Of a DNA stretch of 64,000 nucleotides, positions 2,889-20,200 are shown piece by piece. Both the position numbers and the translations under genes were made by a program. This DNA is from an uncultured delta proteobacterium (GTDB lineage Bacteria; Desulfobacterota; RBG-13-43-22): positions 96,001 through 160,000 of the forward strand of contig CAWDKY010000028.1 of assembly GCA_963802945.1 (NCBI GenBank), given 5' to 3'. Under the pieces are notes generated by a model. That model worked only from the letters and a program-made list of their open reading frames with translations, was not told the origin of the DNA and ran no database searches. How positions within the stretch are numbered: the first letter of the stretch is position 1; each line of letters begins with the position of its first letter.

Positions 2889-3752
2889 CTAGGCTGAATC
2901 GATTCTTTTACCTTCGCTCTTTACTGCTGTATTTTTGTGTTTGTTTTTAAACCACTCAATCAGACTTCTGGCAATACTGATCCTGCCAGGGATTTTGGGT
3001 AATTGGTCGAAGGTAAACCAGTTGGCCTCCAGGATCTCCGTACCGTCTACTCGGATCTCTCCACCGGCATAACGGGCGGTGAAACCGATCATCAGGGAAT
3101 CCGGAAAAGGCCAGGGCTGGCTCCCGAAATATCGGATGTCCTGCACCTCAATGCCGGTTTCTTCTCTTACCTCTCGCCCCACTGTTTCTTCCAAAGTTTC
3201 TCCCGGTTCAGCGAAGCCGGCCAGGACACTGTAAAACCCATCTTGAAAACGAGGGGAACTGGCCAGTAAACATTGATCTCCCCGTTCCACCAAAACGATC
3301 ACTGCCGGCGATATACGGGGAAAGCTCTGGTGTCCGCAGCCGGGACATTTCTTGGCCCTCTCACCGTCTTGAATTTTCAGTTCCATCCCGCATCGTTGGC
3401 AGAATCGGGTCTGTTGAGACCATTCAAGAAGATGAATGGCGCGAAAGGACAGCAGGAGTATATCCTGTTTCAGCCGTCTATAGAGCTGGAACAGATCCTG
3501 AAAAGCCATATCAAGAGGGGCTGCATCAGAATCAGGAACGATAGCGGCAAAACAGGGTTTTCCATCCAGGGTTCCCAGGTAGGTATCTTCTATAGGTTGG
3601 AACCCCAATGCCTCCGGACCGGAGAGAAGAGGGATTTTCGCTTCTTGGCCATCGGATGTTACGAGCAGTCTGCGTTTGGAAAAAATAAACCACCAGGCCG
3701 ATTCCGTTTGTTCATTCGGCCGATCGGTTGAGGCAATAAATCGTTTGGTCAT
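2889..3752 (-). CDS. nudC: NAD(H) diphosphatase / NAD-capped RNA hydrolase NudC
   Basis: Zn ribbon CQRC...CPGC, Nudix box GFAEPGETLEETVGREVREETG, SQPWPFPDS signature. Confidence 0.93.
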   Translation of the reverse strand: MTKRFIASTDRPNEQTESAWWFIFSKRRLLVTSDGQEAKIPLLSGPEALGFQPIEDTYLGTLDGKPCFAAIVPDSDAAPLDMAFQDLFQLYRRLKQDILLLSFRAIHLLEWSQQTRFCQRCGMELKIQDGERAKKCPGCGHQSFPRISPAVIVLVERGDQCLLASSPRFQDGFYSVLAGFAEPGETLEETVGREVREETGIEVQDIRYFGSQPWPFPDSLMIGFTARYAGGEIRVDGTEILEANWFTFDQLPKIPGRISIARSLIEWFKNKHKNTAVKSEGKRIDSA

Positions 3753-5293: not shown

Positions 5294-5576
5294 ATTCGTC
5301 CTTTGATAAAACTCTGCTTTTGATATAGGAAGAGTATAAAATAAGGAAAAGATAGGATCAAGAAGAAAAACAGGGCGAAAGGCAAGGGGATAAAAGGAGT
5401 CATCTGTAGAAAACAAGGCGTTACAGGTCTGCACTTTTTAAATAGATTACCTACAAATCTTCTAAATTGGTCGTTCCGAAATTTAACGATTATTGTTTGA
5501 AATGTGCATAAGCAAAGGCAGGGCCATTGCTGAACCCTGCCTTTCCGGCTTTTGGATGTTCAGGGCTATCCTTTTA

Positions 5577-6986
5577 TTAGTCTGCGGGATTTTTTCCCTT
5601 GCATCGTTCCAGTTTCGGATCCATCCAGGGGAGAATTCTTTCCGCTGGGATCCTCCATGCAGGACCAAGATAGGAATAATCGGAAGCCCAATGATAGGGC
5701 GGGATATTGAAAGCTACCTTCTGTTGATCGGGTGAGACATATTCGATGATATAAACATCTTGAATCGTATTGTGATCACAAGCCCGCATTTTTGCCACGT
5801 GACCGTTTACATATTGATAAGTGTCCCCTTCCCAGACCTTGATGATCTTTTCAGCATCCGTACTGCCGGCCCTTTCGATAACACTCAGCATCCAATACCC
5901 TTCCATCGCAAAGGCGTCCCATCCCTGCTCGTAACTCCTGTTATTAAAAGGGGGTTTGAATTTGGTTCTATATAAATTTTGCCAAGTATTATAGTATTTG
6001 ATCATTTCCGATGTTTTAAAGACCGGATTGCCATTATAAACAGGACTGCCTAGTTGCAAACCTTTGGAACCCTCAATGCCGACGTCACTTAAGGCAACGG
6101 GGTCAGTGACGAAAATTTGGGCCATGGGAAGCTTGATCCCCATTTGTCGGGCCTGTTTCAGGAGGTTGAGGGCATCCGGATTCCAATCGCCGGTGTAAAT
6201 CACCTCGGCTCCGGAGGCCTTTATCTTGGTCAGATAAGGGGCAAAATCGGTCAGGAACAGCTTATGATAATCTTCCCCGACGATTTGGGCCTCGGGATAA
6301 TATTCCTTTAAAGCTTTTTTAAAGCTGTCGGCCAGGTCATGACCGAACATATAGTCCTGGCAGAGAATGTAAAATTTTTTTTCTTTTTTCCTGACGTGGC
6401 CGTAAAAATAGGCAAAGGCCTTGCCGACCTGTGAAGTCTGCCACCAGGGCATAAAGGCATACCGGGAAAAATTAGTAGCATCCTGGAGCTCGTCGGATAA
6501 AGAAGTAAAGTTCATGGCAATGATCTTATATTTCTCGGCCGTTTGGTTCATGACCTTCACGATGTGGCTGCCGTCTGCCCCCACCAGGAACTTGACACCT
6601 TCCTCTAAGACCATCCGTTCACAGGCCTTTTTGGCTTGGGCCGGATTTCCCCCATGATCGGCTTTGAAAATCTGGACCAGCTTCTTTTTCCCGTCGACCA
6701 TGATGCCGCCCCTCTTGTTGATATCGTGGGCCGCCCACTGGAAACAACAAAAATAATATTCTCCCACTGCGGTAGCCGGACCAGAAAAGGAACCAACTAT
6801 GGCAATCTTGATGGTGTCCCCGGTGGGGATCACCGGGTTGCTGGGATCGAAGTTAGACATGTCGCCCATTTTGTTGACCTCAAACTTGGCTTTGGCCGCC
6901 ATAGCTGCATTGGAACTTATGGCCGACAGTAACAAAAATGAAAAAATACTTAAAACAATGAAAATGCCTTTTCCTTTCGATTTCAT
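5577..6986 (-). CDS. ABC transporter substrate-binding protein (LivJ/LivK-like)
   Basis: Signal peptide; IKIAIVGSFSGP, INKRGGI, QDYMFG, TDFAPYLTKIK motifs. Confidence 0.85.
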   Translation of the reverse strand: MKSKGKGIFIVLSIFSFLLLSAISSNAAMAAKAKFEVNKMGDMSNFDPSNPVIPTGDTIKIAIVGSFSGPATAVGEYYFCCFQWAAHDINKRGGIMVDGKKKLVQIFKADHGGNPAQAKKACERMVLEEGVKFLVGADGSHIVKVMNQTAEKYKIIAMNFTSLSDELQDATNFSRYAFMPWWQTSQVGKAFAYFYGHVRKKEKKFYILCQDYMFGHDLADSFKKALKEYYPEAQIVGEDYHKLFLTDFAPYLTKIKASGAEVIYTGDWNPDALNLLKQARQMGIKLPMAQIFVTDPVALSDVGIEGSKGLQLGSPVYNGNPVFKTSEMIKYYNTWQNLYRTKFKPPFNNRSYEQGWDAFAMEGYWMLSVIERAGSTDAEKIIKVWEGDTYQYVNGHVAKMRACDHNTIQDVYIIEYVSPDQQKVAFNIPPYHWASDYSYLGPAWRIPAERILPWMDPKLERCKGKNPAD

Positions 6987-7061
6987 TACCTTCCTCCTTT
7001 GAGAGCGTCAAAAAATAAACTTTTTTTTAAATTAACCTCCTTTCTTTTAAAAAAACAGTAC

Positions 7062-7310
7062 CTAACAAATTATAGTAGAGCCGAATTTACCAAGGTCATT
7101 CTTCGGTTTCACTCCCAACTCCAACTTAATGAGAGCCGCCGCTTTCGCCTCCCCCAATATGGTTAAGCCGAATCTCTTTTTTGATTCGAAGAGCCATTCC
7201 ATCCACCGCCGGCGATCTCTGGAAAATTTAAACAGATATTCCCTCTTATGGCATCGATGGGTGATATGCCATATCTGATTAGGAATAAAATATCGATTGG
7301 CACGCGGCAT
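7062..7310 (-). pseudogene. Truncated REP-associated (RAYT/Y1 HUH) transposase, N-terminal ~52 aa
   Basis: MPRANRYFIPNQIWHITHRCHKREYLFKFSRDRRRWMEWLFESKKRFGLTIL matches the RAYT N-terminus; similarity stops before the HUH motif. Confidence 0.75.
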
Positions 7311-7428
7311 CTCTGGTCTTCTTAACCCACTCTTTTTGGGGGGTAAAAAGATCGGTTTAAGGCCTTTTTAACCCATTATTTTTAGTATCTTTCAGTGGAA
7401 TTTCAATCTATTGTCTCGGTCCGACCCC
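7238..7428. repeat. Direct repeat copy 1 (~190 bp): RAYT 5' end plus upstream sequence, ending in GGTCCGACCCC
   Basis: Near-identical to 8656-8846, with only a few substitutions in the coding part. Confidence 0.92.
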
Positions 7429-8281
7429 CCTTTGACTGCATGCCATGGTTGCGCGGGTCAAGGGGGTGTTCGGGGCTAAAATCAATACGTGTACCCAAAT
7501 GTAGACCAAGCATATCCAAAGCCTCCTTAATCTCGAGAACCTTACTCCTACCGAAAGCCTTCAGCATTAGCATTTCCTGCTCCGTCCTTTGAACCAACTG
7601 TCCAAGGTAGCGTATGTCCAGTTTCTTGAGCATGGTGGACGTGTCAATTCTCAGACCAAGAATGTCAATCGGGGCAAAAAACTTTGACGCACAACCAACA
7701 TAAGCTGTACGCATCTCGGAATTGAGCACCCGAACAGTGTTTAGAACCTCCTCCAGTAGCTCCCTGTCTGTTCTGAGGACTGCGCGATCCAACTGGTGCT
7801 GTTCCTTTAGTACGTCGTTTATATCCTTTTCAAGATCAGGCCACCATTTTTCGTAAACAGCGTCCAACACAGGGGCATCCAGAGCCAGTTCACCGAGTGC
7901 CTGGTTTATCGTCTTAAGGAGTTTTTTCACTTCATCTTTTCCAAAAACCGCGGCTTGAAATTGCAGTAGAGGTCCTTTCAGATCAGCACTATTAATACCA
8001 AACAACAACGGTATGACACGGGATTTATCGACACTTTTCGACAGCGCTCCTGCTTCAAACATTATCCAGGGTTCGTCTGTGTTTTCCCGCGTCAAACAGA
8101 TGAGTCCAACCTTAGATTGCTCGAGTTCTTTCGATATCTCAGTGTACCACCGTGCCCCTTTGTTAATATCGTCTGGTGAAAAATATGGTTTGACAATTTG
8201 AATAACGGCCGGTATCCACTCTCTAAATATCTCAGCAAGTTTCTTGCTGGTGGAGCCAGACCAGCTTATAAATACTCTCAT
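7403..8281 (-). CDS. TIR domain protein fused to an RNA polymerase alpha C-terminal-domain-like module
   Basis: N-terminus RVFISWSG...DINKGARW...GLICLT...WIMFEAG is TIR with the catalytic Glu position. C-terminus PIDILGL...LKKLDIRYLGQLVQRTEQEML...FGRSKVLEIKEALDMLGLHLG aligns by eye to the RpoA CTD. Confidence 0.85.
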   Translation of the reverse strand: MRVFISWSGSTSKKLAEIFREWIPAVIQIVKPYFSPDDINKGARWYTEISKELEQSKVGLICLTRENTDEPWIMFEAGALSKSVDKSRVIPLLFGINSADLKGPLLQFQAAVFGKDEVKKLLKTINQALGELALDAPVLDAVYEKWWPDLEKDINDVLKEQHQLDRAVLRTDRELLEEVLNTVRVLNSEMRTAYVGCASKFFAPIDILGLRIDTSTMLKKLDIRYLGQLVQRTEQEMLMLKAFGRSKVLEIKEALDMLGLHLGTRIDFSPEHPLDPRNHGMQSKGGRTETID

Positions 8282-8655
8282 AAATACCCCCTGTGGTTGT
8301 TTGAAAACTGCCAACCCGATTCTCGATAACTACTGCCCAAGTTATTCTAAAGATCTGCATATCTCCTTGTTTTCCATGATATACAGAAAGATAATCTTAA
8401 GTTTAACGCCCAATTTTGTTTTAATGGGCATAAATTAACCTTTTGTAAGAGTATTAACTTCAAATATTTGATCCTTACCTCATTAAAACAAAAAACCCCA
8501 CCTCTTATTTAAAAAATGGGGCTTATAGTTCTTCCCTCGACACTCCCTTAGTAAAAGGTTGCCAACAAGAAAGCTTCTTCAATTTGTTTAAGAATTCTTA
8601 CCTCCTAATTATCAATAAGTCAATTAATTTCAATAAGCTTTTTATTTATTAAGAA

Positions 8656-8846
8656 ATTCCCTCTTATGGCATCGATGGGCGATATGCCATACTTGGTTGG
8701 GAATAAAATATCGATTGGCACGCGGCATCTCTGGTCTTCTTAACCCACTCTTTTTGGGGGGTAAAAAGATCGGTTTAAGGCCTTTTTAACCCATTATTTT
8801 TAGTATCTTTCAGTGGAATTTCAATCTATTGTCTCGGTCCGACCCC
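8656..8846. repeat. Direct repeat copy 2 (RAYT 5' end remnant)
   Basis: Near-identical to 7238-7428; encodes MPRANRYFIPNQVWHIAHRCHKR on the minus strand. Confidence 0.92.
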
Positions 8847-8857
8847 GCTTTGCAATT

Positions 8858-8980
8858 CTCCTTATCGTAAGTGTAATGATAATTCCCGGACAAAGGCGTA
8901 GTCATGGTCCGGCGCAGAGTCACGCCAGTGTAATCAAAACCATAACTGATGGTTCGTGGATTGGTCAATACGATCATGCT
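8858..8980 (-). pseudogene. Stub of a further orphan Rhs/YD module
   Basis: Translates to MIVLTNPRTISYGFDYTGVTLRRTMTTPLSGNYHYTYDKE, homologous to the main toxin at ~15815-15935; truncated next to the RAYT repeat. Confidence 0.8.
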
Positions 8981-8990
8981 GATATTGTCA

Positions 8991-9500
8991 TTATTTTTCT
9001 TGCCCCATTTTTAGAAGATTATCTAATTTTTCTTTAAAAAGCTTAGCTTCTTGTTCATTGAATGAAAGTTCTCTCCCTTCAATGGAAAGAACAAAATTAG
9101 TAAAATCCAATAGCACGGCCATGTATTTTTTTTTAGGAATAAAAAATAAAATTTTATCTGTATATTTTATATAAATATCATACGTTGGAAAATATTTATT
9201 CGAATATCTCCTATTTTCATTATATACATTTAAAATTAACTGTACGAGTTCTGAAGAAGTAATAGTTTTATTTTTTAAAATTACTTCTTTTCGTATTTGT
9301 CCTGGAGTAACATAATTTTCACTTAACTTATTTTTTGTAGGATCGATTTCAAGGATAATTTCAACAAACCCATTATTTAAATAAGATAATTGTCTTTCAA
9401 GAGTTTTATCGTCAACGTAAACATAATAAAATGAATCACATGAAAAACATAATATTATTAAAAGGTAGAAGAAAAATATTAAAGAAATCTTTTTCCCCAT
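8991..9500 (-). CDS. Putative immunity lipoprotein for orphan tip A
   Basis: AT-rich gene 11 bp downstream of the Rhs tip; basic N-terminus, hydrophobic stretch and Cys (CFSC-DSF); paralog of 11340-11843. Confidence 0.7.
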   Translation of the reverse strand: MGKKISLIFFFYLLIILCFSCDSFYYVYVDDKTLERQLSYLNNGFVEIILEIDPTKNKLSENYVTPGQIRKEVILKNKTITSSELVQLILNVYNENRRYSNKYFPTYDIYIKYTDKILFFIPKKKYMAVLLDFTNFVLSIEGRELSFNEQEAKLFKEKLDNLLKMGQEK

Positions 9501-9511
9501 TTTTCCCTCCC

Positions 9512-11330
9512 TTATCTGCCCATAAATTCAAAAATGGTTTGTGCTCCAATACGATAACTAATAGTATACCTTGTCGGCATCCACCAAGGTGGAGGGGTTT
9601 TCCACATAAAAGGAAGTATTGGTAATTCAGATAAACATTTTGATAATTGCCTATCACAATCTTTTCTGGATTTCTTCTTACAACTATCAATATCATACCA
9701 ATCAGATATTTTGGAATTTGAATAACACTGATCATGCTGCATAAAACATTTATCCATACTATCTATGGGTTTTCCTGGGCCACTCCTTCCCGGTCCTCCC
9801 CATCTTCCGTATGGGGGAATTATCCAATTTGGAAATAGCCCTTGAGGATCTATCCAATTAACCGGATCGCTTAGGTTATACCCAAATAAATCCGTATCTA
9901 TGCCCTGGAAGAGAATAGGATCCTTGGCTGTCCAACGTCCAACTTCGGGGCTGTAATCCCGATATCCAAATCGTACCAATCCCGTGTCTCGGTCATGGAG
10001 ACCACCGGCAAAGCCAATGGGAACGCTCATTGTTGGATTCGTGTCTGAAATTATATTGCCGAAGGAATCATAGTCAATCTTTTTAACGATAGTGCCGGAG
10101 GCATCAGTGACGGTTTTAAGAGAGCCGACCTGGTCATAGGCAAGGTAATAAGTGCTACCATTGTAGGTCATAGAGACCGGCAGACGGCCATCGGCGTAGT
10201 TAAAGCTCATTATCAGGTTGTCATTACCATCATAGACGGCCAATAGGGTAATAGCATCCTTCCAGAGATATTTTTCAATTATGGTTCCATTGATACGTTT
10301 TGCAATCCTGCGTCCCATTGGGTCATGGTCGTAGGTAATGACAGCGGAGGAGGGCAGGGTGGCAGAGAGGAGTTCTCCCCGCGAAGAATAAGTAGTAGTT
10401 ATTGTTCCGGCCGAGGTTGTCTTCTGAGTCAGAAAACCATCGACATCGAATTGATATGTATCGGTGCCTGCAGTGATGACTTGATCTTCGACCGAGATGG
10501 TATAGGAACGGTTAACGCCACGGAGGGTGTTTATTTCCGTGAGGCGATTGCCATTTGGATCATAGGTGTAAGACTCCACGACCACACTATTTTTTTTGAC
10601 TTTATTCAGCCTGCCATTGGTATCGTATGCATAGTCATAGGTGTCGGTTGCTCCATCGATGGTTTCCACTTTTTGGGTGATCCTTCCGGCCAAGTCACGG
10701 GTGAGGGAGTAATTGTATTTGTTAGCCCCTCCTATTGTGTAAGCAGAGCCATCCAGTTCCCCATAGCCACTAAAGGTCCGGGAATTTGTCAAGGTTCCAT
10801 CCGAAACCGTTTCCGGCAATCCGTTCCGGGCATTGCGGGTAATAGTGAAAGACCCTGCATCGGTTAACAACCCGTCGTTATCATAAGTGAAAGGTTGGGA
10901 TGCCCCGGCATAGCTCAAAGAGGAAAGCCTGAAATCGTTGTTGAAACTATACCCGATGGTCTGGTTAAGCAATCCTGTTCGGGTATCGGTGGTTAGGAGG
11001 GAACCATCATATCCGTAAGTGACTTTTTCTGTACCTCTTGTCGCTTCCCCCAGGAGAGACGAGCAGTTATAGGTATAGCTGGTTACGCCTTCCGGGGTAG
11101 TGGTAGAACTCAGGAGACCGGTTGAGTAGGTATTCGCAATTTGCCTTCCTGATGGGAAGAGAATGGATTTCAGGTTCCGTTCCTTGTCATAGGTGTATTG
11201 ATAATTCCCGACATGGGTGTGGCCATGGACCTGCGCAGGTTCACGCCAGTGTAATCAAAACCATAACTGATGGTTCGGGGATTGGTCAGCACGGTTACAT
11301 TGCCGTTGGCATCATAGTCATAACTGATTA
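9512..11330 (-). CDS. Orphan Rhs/YD module A with a phospholipase A2-like C-terminal tip (5' part frameshifted near 11205; intact ORF 9512-10972)
   Basis: YD repeats; Rhs core RDYSPEVGRWTAKDPI...DPVNWIDPQG; tip YGRWGGPG...PIDSMDKCFMQHDQCY; no signal peptide. Confidence 0.85.
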
Positions 11331-11339
11331 GCTTGTATT

Positions 11340-11843
11340 TTATGGGGATGGCATATTTAAAAGAAAATCTAATGTTGTCTGAAGTAACTTAGCTTCTTGT
11401 TCATTAAAAACAAATTTTCTCCCTTCAATAAAAATAATAGAATTTTTAAAATCAAGGATAACACCTAAAAATTTTTTCGAGGGAAAGAAAAATAAAAACC
11501 TATCAGGATATTTAATAAATATCTTATAGGTTGGGTACCACCCCTCTCCAGAGTACCTTTGGTTTTTCTTGGTTATCTCTAAGATTAAATGAATCATTTC
11601 TAATGATTTTGTCGTATTTTTTATTAAAACCTTTTCAATAATTATTTTTCCAGGAGCAACATATTTCTTGTTATTATCATCTTTTGTTGGATCAATTTGT
11701 AAAACAACTGAGACAAAGCCATTACTAATATTTGATAGTTGCTTTTGAAATGTATAATTATCGACATAAACATAATCAAATGACTCACAACATATAACCA
11801 TCAAAAGAAAAATAAAAATCTTGGGGTATATTTTCTTTTTCAT
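11340..11843 (-). CDS. Putative immunity lipoprotein for orphan tip B
   Basis: Directly follows the Rhs tip; MKKKIYPK...VICC-ESF lipoprotein-like leader; shares YVYVD, IDPTK, YPTY and IEGR motifs with 8991-9500. Confidence 0.7.
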   Translation of the reverse strand: MKKKIYPKIFIFLLMVICCESFDYVYVDNYTFQKQLSNISNGFVSVVLQIDPTKDDNNKKYVAPGKIIIEKVLIKNTTKSLEMIHLILEITKKNQRYSGEGWYPTYKIFIKYPDRFLFFFPSKKFLGVILDFKNSIIFIEGRKFVFNEQEAKLLQTTLDFLLNMPSP

Positions 11844-11857
11844 ATTTCGTTTTTCCT

Positions 11858-13750
11858 TTATCTGCTCATCAACCAAAATAAACCTTGAGATCCAATTCGG
11901 TACAACGTAGCGTATTCAATGGGCATCCACCAAGGAGGCCGATTTTTCCACAATAACGGATTAAAAGATAGTTTTGAAATACAATTTTTTACTTCTTTAT
12001 CGCATCCTTTCCTGTCCTTTAGTTGAGAATTATTAACCTTCCAATCATTTATACCAAATTTCTCATAATTTTTATCATGGGCTCTAAAGCATTCATCCAA
12101 ACTGTCTATTGGATCTTCCGGTCCACTTCTTCCTGGCCCCCCCCATCTCCCGTATGGAGGAACAAACCAATTGGGGAATTCTATGGTTACAAGGGAGGAA
12201 GATGCGCTTAAACCCCCTCTGGAAAGAGCTCCTTGGACATATTGTTGAATAAGCACGGCCTGTTCAGTAAGTCCAAATGGATCCATCCAATTCACTGGAT
12301 CATTTTGTAAATAGCCATATAGATTCATATCCCCACCAGCAAACAGGATAGGATCCTTGGCTGTCCAACGTCCAACTTCGGGGCTGTAATCCCGATATCC
12401 AAATCGTACCAATCCCGTGTCTCGGTCATGGAGACCACCGGCAAAGCCAAAGGGGATAGTAAATGACGGGTTTGTATCACCGATGATGTTGCCGAATGAA
12501 TCATAGTCAATCTTTTTTGTCATATTTCCAACAGTGTCCGTAACTGCTTTTAAAGATCCTACTTGATCATAAGCGAGGTAATAGGTGGCACCGGCCTTTG
12601 TCATAGAAATCGGCATCCGGCCATCGGCATAATTAAATCTCATCAGGAGATTATCATTACCGTCATAGACAGCCATTAACCTGGTCCGACCCTGCCAGAG
12701 GTATTTTTCAGTTATTACACCATTCACTTTTTTAGCAATCCTTCGGGCCAATGGATCATGGAGGTACTCGATTGTTCGCCCATCTGAAAGTAATGATGAT
12801 AATAACTCACCACGGGATGAATAATGGTAGTTCGTCGTACTTGCACCCTGATTCTTTGAAGTGAGAAACCCATCCAGATTGTATTGATATGAGACATTCC
12901 CAGCAGTCAGCAGGTGATCTTCGATAGAATAGACCAGATTCCGTCCGGCTATCCCCCTTAGGGTATTTACCTCATAGGTTCTTGTCCCATTTAAGCTATA
13001 CTGGTATTGTTCAACAATAGAGCCATTTTTAGAAGCAGTCAAAAGACGGTCCATGGGGTCGTAAGTGTAAGTGTAATTAGTAGAAGTCCCGTCAACTGTT
13101 TCTGTACGGGTTGAAATCCTACCTGTATCAGTGCGAGTCAGCGACCATGAAAGAGGAGTCTGGCTTCCGATCGTATAAACCTCTCCATCTTCCTCTCCAT
13201 AGCCATTAAATGTACGGTTCAGATTCAATGCCCCATCATTGACCGATGTTGGCAGGCCAGTAGCTGCATTCCGACCGATGGTAAAGGGCCCCGCACCGGT
13301 CAATAACCCGTCATTGTCGTAACTAAAATTCACCGGTTGACCGGCATAGGTAAATGAAGATAAGTTGAAATCGTTGTTGTACGTATACTGCAATGCCTGG
13401 TTCAGGGAGCCGTTCAAAGTCTCGGAGGTGATCAATGCGCCGTCATAGGTGTAAGTGATCCCTTCTGTGCCCTTGGTTATGTTACCAATCTTCGAATCAC
13501 AGAGATGATTATAAACGATATTTCCTTCCGGGTCTCTGTTCGGATGAGTTGACCCTGATTATAGATATTATTGATCAGTATGCCGGAAGGAAAAGTTAAC
13601 TTGACTAGGTTCCTCTCTTTATCATACAGGTATCCATAACTGCCGCTCAGTGGAGTCTGATAAGAACTGTTTAGGTTGACTTTGTTATACCAGAAAACGT
13701 GATTAATTAATGATGGATTGGTCAACACGGTCATGTTGCCATTGGCATAT
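11858..13750 (-). CDS. Orphan Rhs/YD module B with a phospholipase A2-like tip (5' part frameshifted; intact ORF 11858-13435)
   Basis: YD repeats; Rhs core ending DPVNWMDPFG; tip YGRWGGPG...PIDSLDECFRAHDKNY; upstream ORF 13477-13767 continues the YD homology. Confidence 0.85.
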
Positions 13751-13861: not shown

Positions 13862-14212
13862 CTATGAGATGAAGAATACTATTTTTATAATCCCTGCGGC
13901 GGCTGCAGAACAAATTAAAAATACCAAACTTATTTTGATAATTTTAATCTCAGTTGGTGAAAGTGCCCTAGGAGAATAAAAAAAATGATGCAATAACCAA
14001 AGAATCAAGCCAATCAAAAAACCTGCCAGCCCCGATTTAAGAATAAAAAATGGCAACCAAAAAATACCAATTATCCAAGTTGACGATGGGCGCCCAATGA
14101 ATAATTGGGAAATCATAATGCTTAAATAGTAACTTGCCCCCATTGATAAACCAATTATTCCACCCACAAAGGAAAAGACGTTAGGATATTTTAATTTCAT
14201 TATTTTCTCCAT
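13862..14212 (-). CDS. Putative membrane immunity protein for the full-length toxin
   Basis: Three hydrophobic segments; start overlaps the toxin stop codon (TAATG). Confidence 0.65.
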   Translation of the reverse strand: MEKIMKLKYPNVFSFVGGIIGLSMGASYYLSIMISQLFIGRPSSTWIIGIFWLPFFILKSGLAGFLIGLILWLLHHFFYSPRALSPTEIKIIKISLVFLICSAAAAGIIKIVFFIS

Positions 14213-17200
14213 TAACGCAAACTACCACAACAAGGGAAATAAGAAATCGAGCCACCAATTTTGACTGCATAGCTATAAAATAAGGCCCTATAATTACATG
14301 CTTCTCTATCCTTAGAAGCGACTCTCTTACATTTTTCTTTTATGCATTCACTAAATGTATTATCGCAATTCGCTTTTCCCTTACAACCCTCATAACAATT
14401 ATCATGAGCATCGCAGCATTGGCTAAAACCCCATGGATCAGGAATACTCATACCATATGGCCCGCATCCTTTAAGCCCTTCAAGGTCGACAAAATTAACA
14501 GGGTCATTGTATACATATCCATAAAGATTTGTCTCTTTAGTAGCGAAATCAATAGGGTCTTTAGCAGTCCAGCGACCGATATTGGGATCATAATCACGTG
14601 CTCCGAAGCGGACTAAGTTGGTGCCACGGTCATGAAGGCCACCGGCAAAGCCGAATGGAATTGTAAGTGAAAGATTGGAGTCGGTGACGATGGTGCCAAA
14701 GGTGTCGTAACCAATTTTTTTGACGATGGTGCCAGAAGTGTCGATGACTGTTTTTAGGGAATCTATCTGGTCATAGGCAAGGTAATAAGTACTACCATTA
14801 TAGGTCATAGAGACCGGCATTCGACCATCGGCATAATTGAAGCGCAGTATCAAGTTGTCGCTGGCATCATAGACGGCCAGAAGGGTAGTTGCGCTGGCCC
14901 AGAGATATTTTTCTACAATGGTTCCATTAACCCTTTTGGCTATTCTTCTACCCATCGGGTCGTGGTCGTAAGTGATAACAGCGGAAGAGGGCAGGGTGGC
15001 AGAGAGGAGTTCTCCCCGCGAGGAATAAGTGGTAGTCATTGTTCCTGCGGGGGTTGTCTTCTGGGTCAAAAAGCCATCGGTATCGAATTGATAAGTATCG
15101 GTTCCAGCGGTGATGACTTGATCTTCAACCGAGACGGTATAGGAACGATTGACGCCCCGAAGGGTATTTATCTCGGTCATGCGGTTGCCATTGGCATCGT
15201 AGGTGTAAGACTCCACAACCATGCTATTCTTTTTGACTTCATTCAGCCTGCCGTTGGTATCGTAACCATAATTATAAGTATCCGTCACCCCATCCAACGT
15301 TTCGATTTTTTGAGTGATCCTTCCGGCCAGGTCACGGGTGAGGGTGTAACTGTATTTGTCTGCTCCTCCTACTGTGTAAGCAGAACCATCCAATTCCCCA
15401 TAACCGTTGAATGTCCAGGTATTGGTCATGTTTCCATCTGAAACCGATACAGGTAATCCGTTTTGGGCATTACGGGTTATGGTGTATGAACCGGAGCCGG
15501 TCAACAGCCCATCACTGTCATAGGTGAAGGATTGGGATGCCCCGGCATAGCTTAAAGAGGTAGGCCTGAAATCGTTGTTATAACCATACCCGATGGTCTG
15601 GTTAATCAGGCCTGTTCGGGTATCGGTGGTTAGGAGGGAACCATCATATCCGTAAATGACTTTTTCTGTAACTCTTGTCGCTTCCCCCAGGAGAGACGAG
15701 CAGTTATAGGTATAGCTGGTTACGCCTTCCGGGGTAGTGGTAGAACTCAGGAGACCGGTTGAGTAGGTATTCGCAATTTGCCTTCCTGATGGGAAGAGAA
15801 TGGATTTCAGGTTCCGTTCCTTGTCATAAGTGTATTGATAATTCCCGGACATAGGTGTGGCCATGGACCTGCGCAGGTTCACACCAGTGTAATCGAATCC
15901 ATAACTTATTGACTTGGGGTTCATTAAAATAGTCATGTTGCCATTTGCGTCATAGTCATAACTGATCATAGTGTAGTCCGGCAGGGTCTGGGCCTTAATT
16001 CTTCCTATTATATCATAGGTGTAAGAATAAGTCTTCCCATCGGGGGCAGTCAGGCTCTGAATATTGCCTTGATTGTCATAAGTAATTGTGGAAGTCCTGT
16101 TGCCGATTACGGCGGTAGTCAACCTTCCTTTGGTGTCGTATCCATAACCTAAGGGGAGAAGACCTGTCAACGTCATATTCTGGGTGAGCAGGTTCAAAGG
16201 ATTATAGGTGCGGGTTATCATCCTCCCCAAGGGCGATGTGCTGGTCAGAGTCCCAGTGAGGGTATTGTTGAGAATTGTCCAATTGTAGCCGTTTATGCCG
16301 AGAGTTTCTGTTATGAGGTCAGGGATTGAATCCCCATTATAGTCCTGATAGATTCTGGTGTCGGTGGCGATTAGCATGAGGCCGGCAGGGGTGCGTTGGG
16401 TGAATTCTTTGAGGTATTTGTACTTGTAAGCCGAGTCAAGGTCATATTTCATGGTCTGGTTCATGCCGCAGGAAGGTTGATTGGTTTCAGTCAGGCCGTC
16501 CGACGGAACGGGTGAAGGTGCTGGCAGAGCCGGAGGGGCTGGTGGTGATGGAGGTATAGGCCCCGGTGGAATCGGTATGGTCTTGGTAGGTGGTGGTGTT
16601 GCCTTCAGCGGTTTGCATGGTTACGGTGACAGTGCCGGAATTATCCACACTCCGGGGATAACTCCAGGATCCTCCTTCCGGATCCAAGATGTTGGTAGAT
16701 CCTACCGTTGCCATCGAATTGATGGACAAAATGGTTTCCCTTGGGATCGTATTCGTCGGTCATCAAACCATCCGAAGTATAGGTAAAGGAATAGGCGGAA
16801 TTATCCGGATAGGTGACAGTGCTGAGATGGTTATTGCCATCTACGGTCAATCGGGTCACAATTCCGTCCGGTGAAGTGATCGACAGGGGCACTCCACTTC
16901 CATCCCTCTGGATAGTGGTCTGGTTGCCGAAACGGTCCGTGATGGAAAGCAGTTTATCTGGCCGAATCATATCCAAAGGTGAGCAGGGTTTTGCCCGTCG
17001 CCAGGTCGATGGTGGATTTGTGGAGACCTGTGCTGTCCATGATATAGCCCTGGCCGTTTACATCGGAGAAAATTATATCTCCAGAAATAGTATAAGGTTT
17101 AATTCCTTCGGGTAGGGGGACTTTTCTAATCCGTGATGCGTTTGAGTCTGCTATATAGATGTTCCCTAAGCTATCTAACGCAACCCCTTGAGGAAAATAA

Positions 17201-20200
17201 AGGCTAGCCTCGGTCGCAGGGACTCCTTCATCAGAAGGATCATAATAAAGTCCTCCGTCCCCGGTTCCGGCGATAGTCATAATGATCCCGCTGGTATCCA
17301 CTTTTCTTATTTTTCGGTTACCCGTATCCGCTATATAAAGATTCCCTACATTGTCTAATGTAATGCCATTTGGGATAATGCTTTCTTGTGTAGCAGGATT
17401 CCCGTCACCACTTCCAGACCAACCCCCATTCCCCGCAATAGTTGTAATGATCCCACTTGCGTCCACCTTCCTTATCTGAAGAAATTCAACTATAAATACG
17501 TTTCCTTTATTATCTACGGCTACAACTTGCGGATAATTTAGGTTCGCCTGTATAGCTAGGCCTCCATCTCCACTAGATCCTCCCTGCCCATTTCCAGCAA
17601 TAGTACTAATAGTCCCACTTGTGTCCACTTTCCTTACCCGCCAATTATCCGGAATAAAAACATTTCCGATGGTATCCACAGCTACACTGCTTGGCCAACC
17701 CAGGCCCGCCTGTGCAGCCGGACCCCCATCTCCACTGAAACTATTATTTCCATTTCCCGCAACAGTGGTAATAATTCCATTTGTATCAATCTTCCTTACC
17801 CGATAATTCCAAGTATCGGCTATGTAGATATTCCCAGGGTCGTCTACTGCTACCCCATATGGCGGACCAATGCTTGCCTGTGTGGCCGGACCCCCATCTC
17901 CACTGAAACTATTATTTCCATTTCCTGCAACAGTGGTAATAATTCCATTTGTATCAATCTTCCTTACCCGATAATTCCAAGTATCGGCTATAAAAATATT
18001 TCCAATATTGTCTACAACGATTCCTTGTGGCTTATTAATTCCGGCCTGTGTCGCAGGTCCTCCGTCTCCGCCGTAAGGCCAGCCGGTTCCAGCAATAGTA
18101 AAAATCGGCCTGGTATTATTTTTTATAATTGTTCCGTCTCCTTTAAACAGAATACTTGGGTCGGCAGGATTCATATGATGATGAGAAGAAACCGACCAAC
18201 CTTCTGCAATAGTTTCCACTTCTCCTCGAGTTACTGTTATTGTGGTATTTTTCCAGGCTATTGCCTCTTCCCGAGCTGTGATTTCGGATACCACGTTTCC
18301 TGTTATTCCAAAGGATCGAACCAAATTTACACTTCCCCAATAGACTGCTTGGTAAACAAATCCGATCTGGATATAGGCAACAGCTGACCCATATTGTCTT
18401 CCGAGGTAATCCAAACCATCCCATATAAATTCCACCTTTTGATAAGGCTGTGGGGGAAGTGTGGTTTCAAAAGTGCGGCCGGCAATCTCCATTTTGACAA
18501 TGATATTCTTCAGGCTGGCTGGGACACTTGAACCGCTGGCCGGGATGGTAACCACTGATTTATATCCTTTTACCCGGCTACTGGCATAATGGAGGGTCAT
18601 GTCCGTACCTGGAATGGAGATATCTTCATGGAAAATTCGACTTCGGTTCTCCATATAGGAGTTAAAGCACATATTATTATCGGGAGGGGGTGGTGATGGT
18701 GGAGAATCATCAACGGGTTCACCTGGTGGATTCGGTAGGATAGCATCAATTGGAAAACCCCATGCCAAGTTGTAGTCCCAAACACTAAAGTGCGTATGCT
18801 CCACCCGCCAGTATGTGGATCCTGGTCTATATTGGTTCGGATCGGTGAGGCCAGGTGCAGGATATTGATTTATACCATCCGTATAGGCATCGACGATGCC
18901 GTCTCCGTTGGTATCGAGGAGGCGGACTACGACACCGTTATCCTGGGGCACCCAGACGGCACGATCTTGGTCATAATAGCCGACCGGTACTATTTCTCCC
19001 ACATTGAAACCGAGAAAATTGTTCACATAGACCACAATCGGTTTATCAAACCGTGCGCTTTGGGCATTATCTACAGAAAGCTCGGCACAATAGGTAAAGG
19101 CCGAGGTCGGCGGCAGTTTGGCCGGCATGGATTCCGGGGTCGTGTATTCCGTGGCCCGGACAGTGATGTTGGTCATGGGCTGTTCATTGCCCTGGGCGTC
19201 TTTCACCCAAGCCCGGTTATCCCCGGTTAGAACCATAGTCAGCGACCTAGTGCCACGGCATTGGTAGTGGTCGAGCTTTTGTGAGTCAGGATGGTTGCAG
19301 CATTGCCGTCAAAGGTAAGAGCCGTGGCCGCGATATCCGCTGGGATCATAACAATGGTCTCGGCATTGGCAATGGTGTTCCAGCCGATATTGACCTGGCG
19401 GTGAGCGGCAAGAAACCCGGTCTTCTGATAATCCACTGTGACCGTACCTCCGCCGTCCAGCGGAATGGAAAATCTGCCTGCGGCATCAGTTTGGGCCGTC
19501 CCATATTCCGGATGACTGTGGATGCCGACAATCGCACCGGACAGGGGATTTCCCGACCTGTCTTTCACCAGCCCGGTGATCAAGGAAAAACGATTGGGAT
19601 CATAACTTGGTATGGTGGCATTAGGAGGAACAAGGTCTTCGTAAGTCTTCCCGTAAGATCCGTCAGGAAGGGGAGAGACATTGGATGCCGGAGCGACGGT
19701 AAAATTGATGGACCCTGAAGTACCCCCTCCGGGTGCAGGGTTGGTGACTATTATCGGGTATGTCCCTTGTGTGGCAACGGCTGTTGCTGGGATGGAGGCT
19801 GAAAGTTGAGTGTTATTTACATAGGTGACCGTTACCGGCGTATTATTGAACTTGACCGAAGAGCTGGTGACAAAATTGCTCCCGGCCAGGCTCAAAGTAA
19901 AACCCGAACTGCCTGCTTTTATTGAACTTGGGCTTATTGCAGAAAGGAGAGGCGGTTATCGAAAGAGTCCCCCCAGTTGCCAGATGGGAAGCATCCAGAT
20001 TAATTTTAAGCTCTGTTCCGCTGACATAGGTGGTTGATTCGGTCTGGCCATTTACAAAAACACTTGTACCGGGAAAGAATCCTGTGCCGTAGATTGTGAG
20101 CGTCAATCCCGAGCCTCCGGCTTGAGTGGAAGCAGGATTAATGGCGGTTATGGCCGGAACCGGGTTTATCACGGCAAGCACCAGAGTATTGGAAGAACCG

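Follow-up and report, generated by a model that had tools for sequence, protein, structure and literature searches.

We analyzed a 64,000-nt stretch of DNA (hereafter the window) from an uncultured delta proteobacterium (Desulfobacterota; assembly GCA_963802945.1, contig CAWDKY010000028.1, positions 96,001 to 160,000 of the forward strand) and found that a minus-strand gene at 7403-8281 encodes a protein of 292 aa, here called P0001, in which a TIR domain and a helical extension are followed by a copy of the alpha-CTD, i.e., the domain at the C-terminus of RpoA, the alpha subunit of RNA polymerase. Residues 1-192 represent a conserved chassis, which is shared with a large family including a protein from a validated anti-phage locus, and the C-terminus represents a slot in which other family members carry other modules. 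We tentatively propose that P0001 is a stand-alone anti-phage TIR protein in which the alpha-CTD copy would serve as the sensor of a phage protein and assembly of the TIR domains would lead to NAD+ cleavage.

The open frame extends over 7403..8314 of the window (minus strand, 303 aa with a TTG start), and an ATG at 8281 yields the 292-aa P0001. As homologue N-termini begin at the matching 'M[KR]VFISWSG' and thus share this start point, 7403-8281 represents the correct gene extent. The gene shows the following features (all on the minus strand):

7403..8281, complete coding sequence for the TIR-alphaCTD protein (292 aa), with the stop codon at 7403-7405; from the open reading frame (ORF) and homologue N-termini
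7943..8275, TIR domain, residues 3-113, with the Glu76 codon at 8054-8056; from Pfam TIR_2 and Foldseek
7700..7939, conserved helical extension, residues 115-194, with a 'KWWP' motif and R170/E178/R184; from the structural model, PADLOC and hhalign
7478..7693, alpha-CTD copy, residues 197-268 (Pfam core 202-256, i.e., 7514-7678); from Pfam and fold
7406..7477, low-confidence C-terminal tail, residues 269-292; predicted local distance difference test (pLDDT) scores of 45-56, and homologues lack the tail

An earlier reading of this DNA from its letters and open frames (the sequence-only reading) had described a TIR domain with a Glu at the catalytic position of 'WIMFEAG', a helical linker and an alpha-CTD at about 7480-7685, and all three assignments held when Pfam searches and structure prediction were brought in. 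Pfam TIR_2 matched residues 3-113 with 34.2 bits (cut-off 28) and RNA_pol_A_CTD matched residues 202-256 with 35.7 bits (cut-off 23.8). Only two matches to the latter model (PF03118) were found in the 4.37-Mb assembly, i.e., rpoA itself, on another contig, and the TIR gene, so the alpha-CTD match exceeds what would be expected by chance. NCBIfam rpoA models matched residues 185-276 of P0001 alone, with 15-56 bits versus cut-offs of 228-523.

An AlphaFold2 model of P0001 calculated from 44 homologues (mean pLDDT 85.2) showed a TIR-like alpha/beta domain, helices at residues 115-128, 136-168 and 172-194 (the latter two representing the linker), a compact helical domain with a core pLDDT of 91-96, and a disordered tail. 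The C-terminal domain superimposed on E. coli alpha-CTD structures with a root-mean-square deviation (rmsd) of 0.9-1.6 Å over 65-75 residues and target template modeling (TM) scores of 0.83-0.93; with the Vibrio and Caulobacter alpha-CTDs included, these values were 0.9-1.9 Å and 0.81-0.93, at approx. 39% identity (Foldseek). For the N-terminal half, Foldseek matches were SPARTA TIR-APAZ proteins and plant RPS4 TIR domains. Glu76 was invariant in three family alignments (44/44, 34/34 and 148/148) and aligned with the Glu of the plant TIR motif 'WCLDEL' (3jrn, 7xoz), which we take to be the catalytic residue. At the level of the predicted model, these results confirm the fold identity of both the TIR domain and the alpha-CTD. 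A prediction of a two-copy complex of P0001 scored 0.38 against a mark of 0.42 and was not used as evidence.

Conservation and ancestry of the alpha-CTD copy

Residue conservation was assessed by comparing 47 TIR-linked alpha-CTDs with 12 genuine RpoA CTDs, the host's own included. The 47 comprised the proteins of alignment A1, i.e., 44 diverse ones picked out of 74 alphaCTD bearers (found among the 120 best relatives of P0001), plus L005, L007 and L079. The UP-element contacts of RpoA, which we take to be R265, N268, C269, G296, K298 and S299 (E. coli numbering, with the R of 'VRSANC' presumed to be 265), were invariant in 12/12 RpoAs; P0001 has D, T, M, G, S and K, respectively, at these positions. 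The per-position alignment agrees with the substitutions that had been read by eye (R265 to D, N268 to T, 'GKKS' to 'GRSK'), and the alpha-CTD core motifs 'LVQRTE' and 'EIK..L...GL.LG' are retained in P0001, as the same reading had noted.

Across the 47 TIR-linked copies, R265 was retained in 29, N268 in 19, C269 in 7, G296 in 24, K298 in 27 and S299 in 17; just 4/47 retained R265, N268, G296, K/R298 and S299 jointly, and both R265 and N268 were lost in 11. As R265 is retained in 29 copies, its loss defines no common mechanism, and the earlier suggestion that loss of this Arg points to the type of trigger does not extend to the family. Eight positions that we take to be the DNA-binding "265 determinant" showed a mean entropy of 2.47 bits as compared to 1.91 bits over positions 257-318, a value matched by only 3.2% of random eight-position sets. 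Within the module, conservation is lowest at the DNA-contact positions, and UP-element binding is therefore not what selection appears to maintain; judged from the sequences, it is the fold of the TIR-linked alpha-CTD that is under selection and not canonical UP-element binding. The degraded DNA-contact residues favor a role in protein binding over one in UP-element binding, as far as residue patterns can indicate. Overall, the TIR-linked module and the alpha-CTD of RpoA share fold and domain boundaries, and many family members keep the 'DPILLRPVDDLEL' lead-in; they differ in the UP-element contacts, which are replaced in P0001 and poorly kept family-wide. P0001 cannot be an RNA polymerase subunit, as the alpha N-terminal domain is absent.

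A tree of alpha-CTDs (47 TIR-linked and 20 from RpoA) was split into two groups by a branch with a support of 98/98 (starred). One group comprised 11 TIR-linked copies, that of P0001 included, together with delta, alpha, Firmicute and Acidobacterial RpoAs, and the other comprised 36 TIR-linked copies together with beta and gamma RpoAs. The approximately unbiased (AU) test for a single clade of TIR-linked alpha-CTDs gave P = 0.042. On a tree of the chassis (196 rows, quick method, without L003, L004 and L006, which are identical to P0008, P0010 and P0040, respectively), all 77 alphaCTD bearers fell on one side of a branch with a Shimodaira-Hasegawa-like approximate likelihood ratio test (SH-aLRT) support of 88, and the bearers of delta-like alpha-CTDs formed a subclade. 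Module replacement, convergence to the RpoA of the host, or noise in the alignment, which has just 80 columns, could each reconcile the two trees.

Recent gene conversion from the host rpoA was considered and rejected, with 31/73 aa and 113/219 nt identical and one 51-nt stretch at 78% identity. Homology to RpoA upstream of the alpha-CTD, indicated by a profile alignment from position 148, was likewise rejected, as the A3 profile (built from relatives with other C-termini), which shares this helix, matched no RpoA. Proteins of 512-2000 aa with this type of alpha-CTD were searched for and none was found, which represents weak evidence.

A TIR family with a variable C-terminus

A word-based search identified 2914 relatives among 4768 candidates, and a full HMMER scan identified 4654 representative clusters at E <= 1e-30. 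A dedicated hidden Markov model (HMM) found the alpha-CTD in 74 of the 120 best relatives; the remainder share only residues 1-192 with P0001. An hhalign comparison of A1 with A3 showed 61% identity over residues 1-192 and none past residue 192. As homology between the two classes ends at this residue, the protein consists of a conserved chassis, i.e., the TIR domain and a two-helix extension (residues 1-192), and a swappable C-terminal module. NCBI labels the relatives just "TIR domain-containing protein".

C-termini were hypervariable across 148 family representatives. The matches to Pfam families were as follows:

RNA_pol_A_CTD, 4/148 representatives
PcrA_UvrD_tudor, 2/148 (P0219, P0257)
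TSCPD, 1/148 (P0156)
GntR, 1/148 (P0211)
Pentapeptide repeat, 1/148 (P0264)
Methyltransferase, 1/148 (P0220)
DnaX_C, 2/148 (P0148, P0231), with 23.1 and 21.1 bits, i.e., below the Pfam cut-off of 26.2

Several of these modules represent fragments of housekeeping enzymes that act on nucleic acids. A module outside the Pfam families, with the pattern 'GRWNGG...GRWDFR', recurred in P0113, P0184 and P0193. An IF2 N-domain that had been guessed by eye in P0225 was not confirmed by Pfam.

Many members without an alpha-CTD end in an acidic run followed by [ILVMP]PF, and these ends resemble the C-terminal tip of SSB, the protein that binds single-stranded DNA. We examined these tails in 80 loci, i.e., the best of 508 confirmed relatives in approx. 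185,000 species genomes; L074, a 94-aa fragment, was excluded from all counts over 79 loci. SSB-tip-like tails were present in 26/79 family loci (18/79 with a strict pattern) as compared to 0/855 neighboring ORFs, and in 23/148 representatives. Carriers include L009, L013, L025, L032, L035, L044, L046, L049, L052, L056-L058, L067, L072, L073, L080, L081 and others, as well as P0058-P0116. An AlphaFold2 model of one such member showed a three-helix bundle with a disordered tip.

In ten host genomes compared, SSB ends in ...DDDIPF, ...DDEIPF, ...EDDIPF, ...DEDLPF or ...EDDLPF, and the TIR tails from the same genomes are ...DDDIPF, ...DEIIPF, ...GDDVPF, ...EDEDLPF, ...DDDDLPF, ...DDDDMPF, ...EEIPF, ...DEEPPF, ...EDDRPF and a divergent ...DDADGVF. 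By eye, the TIR tail resembles the SSB tip of its own host in 9/10 of these genomes, and the two hosts with an SSB ending in LPF are the two with a TIR tail ending in LPF. The SSB tip, the PcrA/UvrD Tudor domain and DnaX_C are docking elements for host machines. Approx. one fifth of the tails (SSB-like tips counted) can be recognized as pieces or mimics of proteins from host replication or transcription.

The chassis itself is already known from PADLOC and from one relative in a validated locus. The PADLOC model PDLC03016 ("TIR-TM") matched residues 1-192 of P0001 (E = 1.7e-79, 265.7 bits) with its positions 1-197 of 293; positions 198-293 found no match in P0001, which has the alpha-CTD there instead. 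The same model matched gp02 of Escherichia phage P2_AC1 (locus record L134, 3001-3948) from end to end (393 bits), and the two AC1 genes upstream of gp02 matched the PADLOC models "1TM-TIR" and "2TM-TIR". According to an excerpt of Rousset 2022 (PMC9122126), the cloned three-gene locus, from a hotspot of the P2-like phage AC1, shields E. coli C from lambda, LF82_P8 and P2-like phages; an excerpt of a preprint (10.1101/2024.10.26.620412) names this system Rst_2TM_1TM_TIR. P0001 and gp02 have the chassis of TIR domain and helical extension in common (49% identity over residues 1-157). They differ in the C-terminus, which in gp02 is helical and acidic-ended, and in the two membrane-protein partners of gp02, which P0001 lacks: a tblastn search with AC1 gp01, gp03 and gp04 found no match in the window or in any of the 79 other loci, and the partner models PDLC02977 and PDLC02978 found none in the whole genome (100% complete by markers), whereas the same search on the phage record, as a positive control, gave E = 1.6e-76.

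Further family members reside on mobile elements. In the lambdoid phage mEp390, the chassis relative gp47 (L135, 3001-3819) occupies a moron slot on the opposite strand, with the Q antiterminator on one side and the holin on the other, and is flanked by its own annotated terminators; other relatives are carried by plasmids of Serratia (4.7 kb) and Acidithiobacillus (14 kb). A scan of viral contigs with P0001 found no relative.

Among other known systems, SPARTA TIR-APAZ proteins represent the best structural matches to the TIR domain (8qlp_E, 8spo_I, 8i87_C) and have the Glu at the catalytic position in common with P0001, which lacks an APAZ domain and an Argonaute partner. SPARTA TIR-APAZ is activated through assembly on nucleic acid; compared to SPARTA and other TIR NADases, the putative sensor of P0001 is distinct in being a domain copied from a housekeeping protein of the host. 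Thoeris ThsB is likewise a small TIR protein that is thought to sense infection, and the ThsB1 profile showed a weak match to P0001 (E = 0.032) and to P0045 (E = 6.7e-4), a gamma-type homologue with an alpha-CTD close to that of E. coli; P0001 differs in having another C-terminal module and no ThsA-type neighbor in the window. In the NLR receptors of plants (nucleotide-binding proteins that carry leucine-rich repeats) with integrated decoys, e.g., RRS1-WRKY, a copy of a pathogen-targeted host domain is fused to an immune receptor. The concept is the same, i.e., an immune domain joined to a copy of a host target domain without its normal biochemical residues, but the likeness is one of analogy only, as P0001 has no NB-ARC domain or leucine-rich repeats and belongs to another kingdom.

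Possible modes of action

The TIR domain and the conserved Glu lead us to infer NAD+ cleavage by P0001. In the mechanism that we propose, the TIR gene would have been acquired horizontally and would act alone against phage, with the variable C-terminal slot as the specificity (sensor) module, filled in P0001 by the alpha-CTD copy. This copy would bait a phage factor whose usual target, for contact or modification, is the alpha-CTD of the host; once this factor is bound, TIR domains would come together, the assembled TIR would cleave NAD+ or make an NAD-derived signal, and the infected cell would be arrested. Phage activators and modifiers with known contacts to the alpha-CTD, i.e., candidate triggers, include P2 Ogr, P4 Delta, Mu Mor, lambda CII, and T4 Alt and ModA. 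The bait reading is plausible as a whole, with the enzymatic activity, oligomerization, trigger, bait role and defense by the P0001 gene all putative. The sequence-only reading had already proposed an alpha-CTD mimic that does not bind DNA as bait for phage factors that hijack RNA polymerase. This proposal is partly supported by the TIR chassis, which is that of a validated anti-phage locus, by the single, accessory state of the gene, by the degraded DNA contacts and by the sister modules related to host hubs; a part that did not stand is the weight put on the loss of R265, as this loss is not family-wide.

The occurrence of sister proteins in which the same chassis carries other pieces or mimics of host hubs (SSB-tip-like, Tudor, TSCPD) fits the logic of a bait. 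The whole TIR family might consist of integrated decoys, the slot having been loaded repeatedly with copies or mimics of host hubs (alpha-CTD, the SSB acidic tip with the host's own ...IPF or ...LPF, the PcrA/UvrD Tudor, TSCPD and perhaps DnaX_C) so that a phage grabbing one of them would set off NAD+ destruction; we consider this extension possible and rather doubtful. If it applied, free alpha-CTD-like proteins encoded by phages, such as those found in IMG/VR (see below), could be part of the same conflict.

Several observations weigh against a bait. By estimate, approx. 115 of the C-termini from the 148 representatives lack both a Pfam family and an SSB-like tail, and for the GntR helix-turn-helix, pentapeptide and methyltransferase modules the status as host hub is not obvious. 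The AC1 phenotype may not transfer to P0001, as the validated relative works with two membrane proteins that are absent here. Within the alpha-CTD, the "287 determinant", which we take to be the activator-contact patch, had an entropy of 1.69 bits, and 22% of random sets were equally low, i.e., its conservation was not significant (it reads TEQEML/GTRI in P0001 versus TEPEML/GMKL in the host RpoA). The positions presumed to contact sigma are altered in P0001 (D259 to I, E261 to G). The identity of only 31 out of 73 residues with the alpha-CTD of the host RpoA further weakens the bait, as a bait that is true to its model would be expected to match it where contact is made. At its 3' end, the gene runs into a repeat that adds a disordered tail of 24 residues, and the protein could be impaired. 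Finally, most of the 89 ORFs that neighbor six other loci of the alphaCTD type are housekeeping genes, with few defense or mobile-element matches (one each for a DRT-type reverse transcriptase model, a PDC candidate, an integrase and a transposase), and the enrichment in defense islands that the sequence-only reading had envisaged was not seen in this small sample.

A tether accounts for the same data as a bait, which also counts against the latter. Here the C-terminal module would station the TIR enzyme at a cellular site and catch no phage protein: the alpha-CTD would hold it at AT-rich or promoter DNA or at transcription factors, SSB-like tails would hold it at hubs of replication and repair, and the Tudor domain at RNA polymerase, with activation by crowding on foreign DNA or by disturbance of the guarded machine. 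Retention of R265 in 29/47 TIR-alphaCTDs and of the full DNA-contact set in 4/47 speaks for such a role, as do the docking function of the sister modules (including the sub-threshold DnaX_C) and the SPARTA proteins as closest TIR structures, given their activation on nucleic acid. However, P0001 itself lacks R265, N268, C269, K298 and S299, the DNA-contact positions are the least conserved ones in the family, and we know of no route by which an isolated alpha-CTD could dock on the RNA polymerase core. A tether thus suits members that keep R265 and suits P0001 poorly, and we regard it as unlikely. Less likely again is a signal-making TIR that senses infection via the alpha-CTD and produces an NAD-derived messenger, with the killing done by an unlinked effector, as in Thoeris and as proposed for AC1. 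The weak ThsB1 match and the presence of two further TIR_2 genes in the genome would agree with this. Defense effectors are normally linked to their sensors, however, and no conserved neighbor family was found in the 80 loci (the largest non-self cluster within 6 kb occurred in 5/80). Adjacent co-directional ORFs with a predicted membrane helix were found upstream in 10/79 and downstream in 12/79 loci, i.e., at about background frequency, and the genome held no match to the AC1 partner models.

P0001 could also be no working defense gene at all, being either a decaying remnant with a 3' end rebuilt by insertion of a repeat or a regulator that competes with the alpha-CTD of RNA polymerase for activators and uses the TIR domain only to oligomerize. 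The last codons do lie in a dispersed repeat and encode a disordered extra tail, there is no defense-island context, and both the sigma-contact and DNA-contact residues are altered. On the other hand, the frame is intact, all family-invariant residues are kept (including E76, W72, G78 and P104), and the core of the alpha-CTD is predicted to fold with high confidence. Moreover, the architecture is kept in 74/120 best homologues from many lineages, which argues for selection on it. We regard both forms of this reading as improbable, to about the same degree as the signal-making TIR.

A full-text search of the literature found nothing on TIR-alphaCTD fusions, on TIR proteins with an SSB-tip tail or on bacterial integrated decoys of this kind. 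How single-protein bacterial sensors recognize phages represents a central open question, and a slot loaded with host hubs predicts a trigger for each variant, i.e., a phage protein that binds the alpha-CTD, the SSB tip, etc. If the bait reading is true, the "integrated decoy" strategy known from plants arose in bacteria too, and the family would provide a route to phage proteins that hijack transcription or replication as well as a modular scaffold for building sensors; if a tether is true, the family would still add a new case of immune enzymes posted at core machines. In addition, the validated and mechanistically unexplored AC1 TIR family is extended beyond its rare form with three genes to thousands of genes that stand alone.

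The locus and further alpha-CTD-like proteins

The TIR-alphaCTD gene stands alone and is accessory. Among 401 sampled genomes of the phylum, the full TIR-alphaCTD architecture was found in the source genome only, and four more genomes carried the chassis with another tail. Neither TIR-alphaCTD nor chassis was found in 10 genomes of the same genus and 13 of the same family. A DNA search of 12 same-genus genomes found the flanks and the repeats, and among the matches listed none fell on the TIR gene. Neighbors in the window comprise a solute-binding protein, a protease, RHS/YD-repeat cassettes and a repeat element, with no recognized defense genes. The following features surround the gene:

7226..7434, plus strand, downstream copy of a 209-nt direct repeat (pair 95% identical, spacing 1418)
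8644..8852, plus strand, upstream copy of this repeat (the pair brackets the TIR gene)
8493..8524, minus strand, terminator-like hairpin upstream of the TIR gene (consensus match only)

The hairpin suggests that the TIR gene is transcribed separately from the RHS cassette. The 209-nt repeat is one of a dispersed family and has 19 genomic matches, of which several form clusters on contigs C29 and C30; each of the 12 same-genus genomes searched contains scattered related copies. With its last codons, the TIR gene runs into the repeat, and this accounts for the disordered tail of 24 residues, which is absent in homologues; these end just past 'GL.LGM..'. Members of the repeat family also occur in the window at 7155-7435, 8338-8651 and 5302-5451. 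A short minus-strand ORF (7062-7310) starts in the repeat and had been read by eye as the N-terminus of an IS200/REP-type transposase; it had no Pfam match, and the candidate was dropped. A search of Rfam over 6900-9100 gave no match.

An array of RHS/YD-shell (teneurin-like) cassettes occupies 9512-10972, 11858-13435, 14212-16464 and 16954-19236, all on the minus strand, with a gene for an NHL-repeat protein upstream of it. Two of the cassettes have phospholipase-A2-like C-terminal ends (sub-threshold Pfam matches), and each is followed by a small low-GC ORF outside known families (8991-9500, 11340-11876) that may represent an immunity gene. A NudC-type NUDIX NADH pyrophosphatase gene (with NUDIX, NUDIX-like and zinc-ribbon domains) is located at 2889-3752 on the minus strand, 3.6 kb from the TIR gene. 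As this gene is kept in same-genus genomes (90% identity in G143), it is probably a housekeeping gene and its proximity coincidental. The two further TIR_2 genes of the genome are located at C17:200659-200973 and C27:61000-61296, in frames of 285 and 729 aa, respectively.

Small alpha-CTD-like proteins were also found on viral contigs of IMG/VR, where 134 of 169 candidate stretches were confirmed. Among the best 80, 20 ORFs were <= 130 aa, 54 were 131-289 aa and only 6 were RpoA-sized; this set (L136-L215) includes many non-RpoA alpha-CTD-like proteins of 75-290 aa. By eye, a sigma-70 region-4-like helix-turn-helix lies upstream of the alpha-CTD-like part in several of these (e.g., L136, L150, L182, L191, L195 and L208), and L196 and L197 have two alpha-CTD-like repeats each. 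As the scan patterns were the DNA-contact motifs themselves, motif conservation in the viral set is uninformative. In the ESM Atlas, clusters of 75-82-aa alpha-CTDs have Uroviricota as their commonest known taxon, which we report as a lead only. In a Planctomycetia genome (G422; L132/L133, C225 5801-6262), one frame of 386 aa matches the alpha-CTD twice in succession (82 and 58 bits), and the genome also carries a separate alpha-CTD gene of 352 aa.

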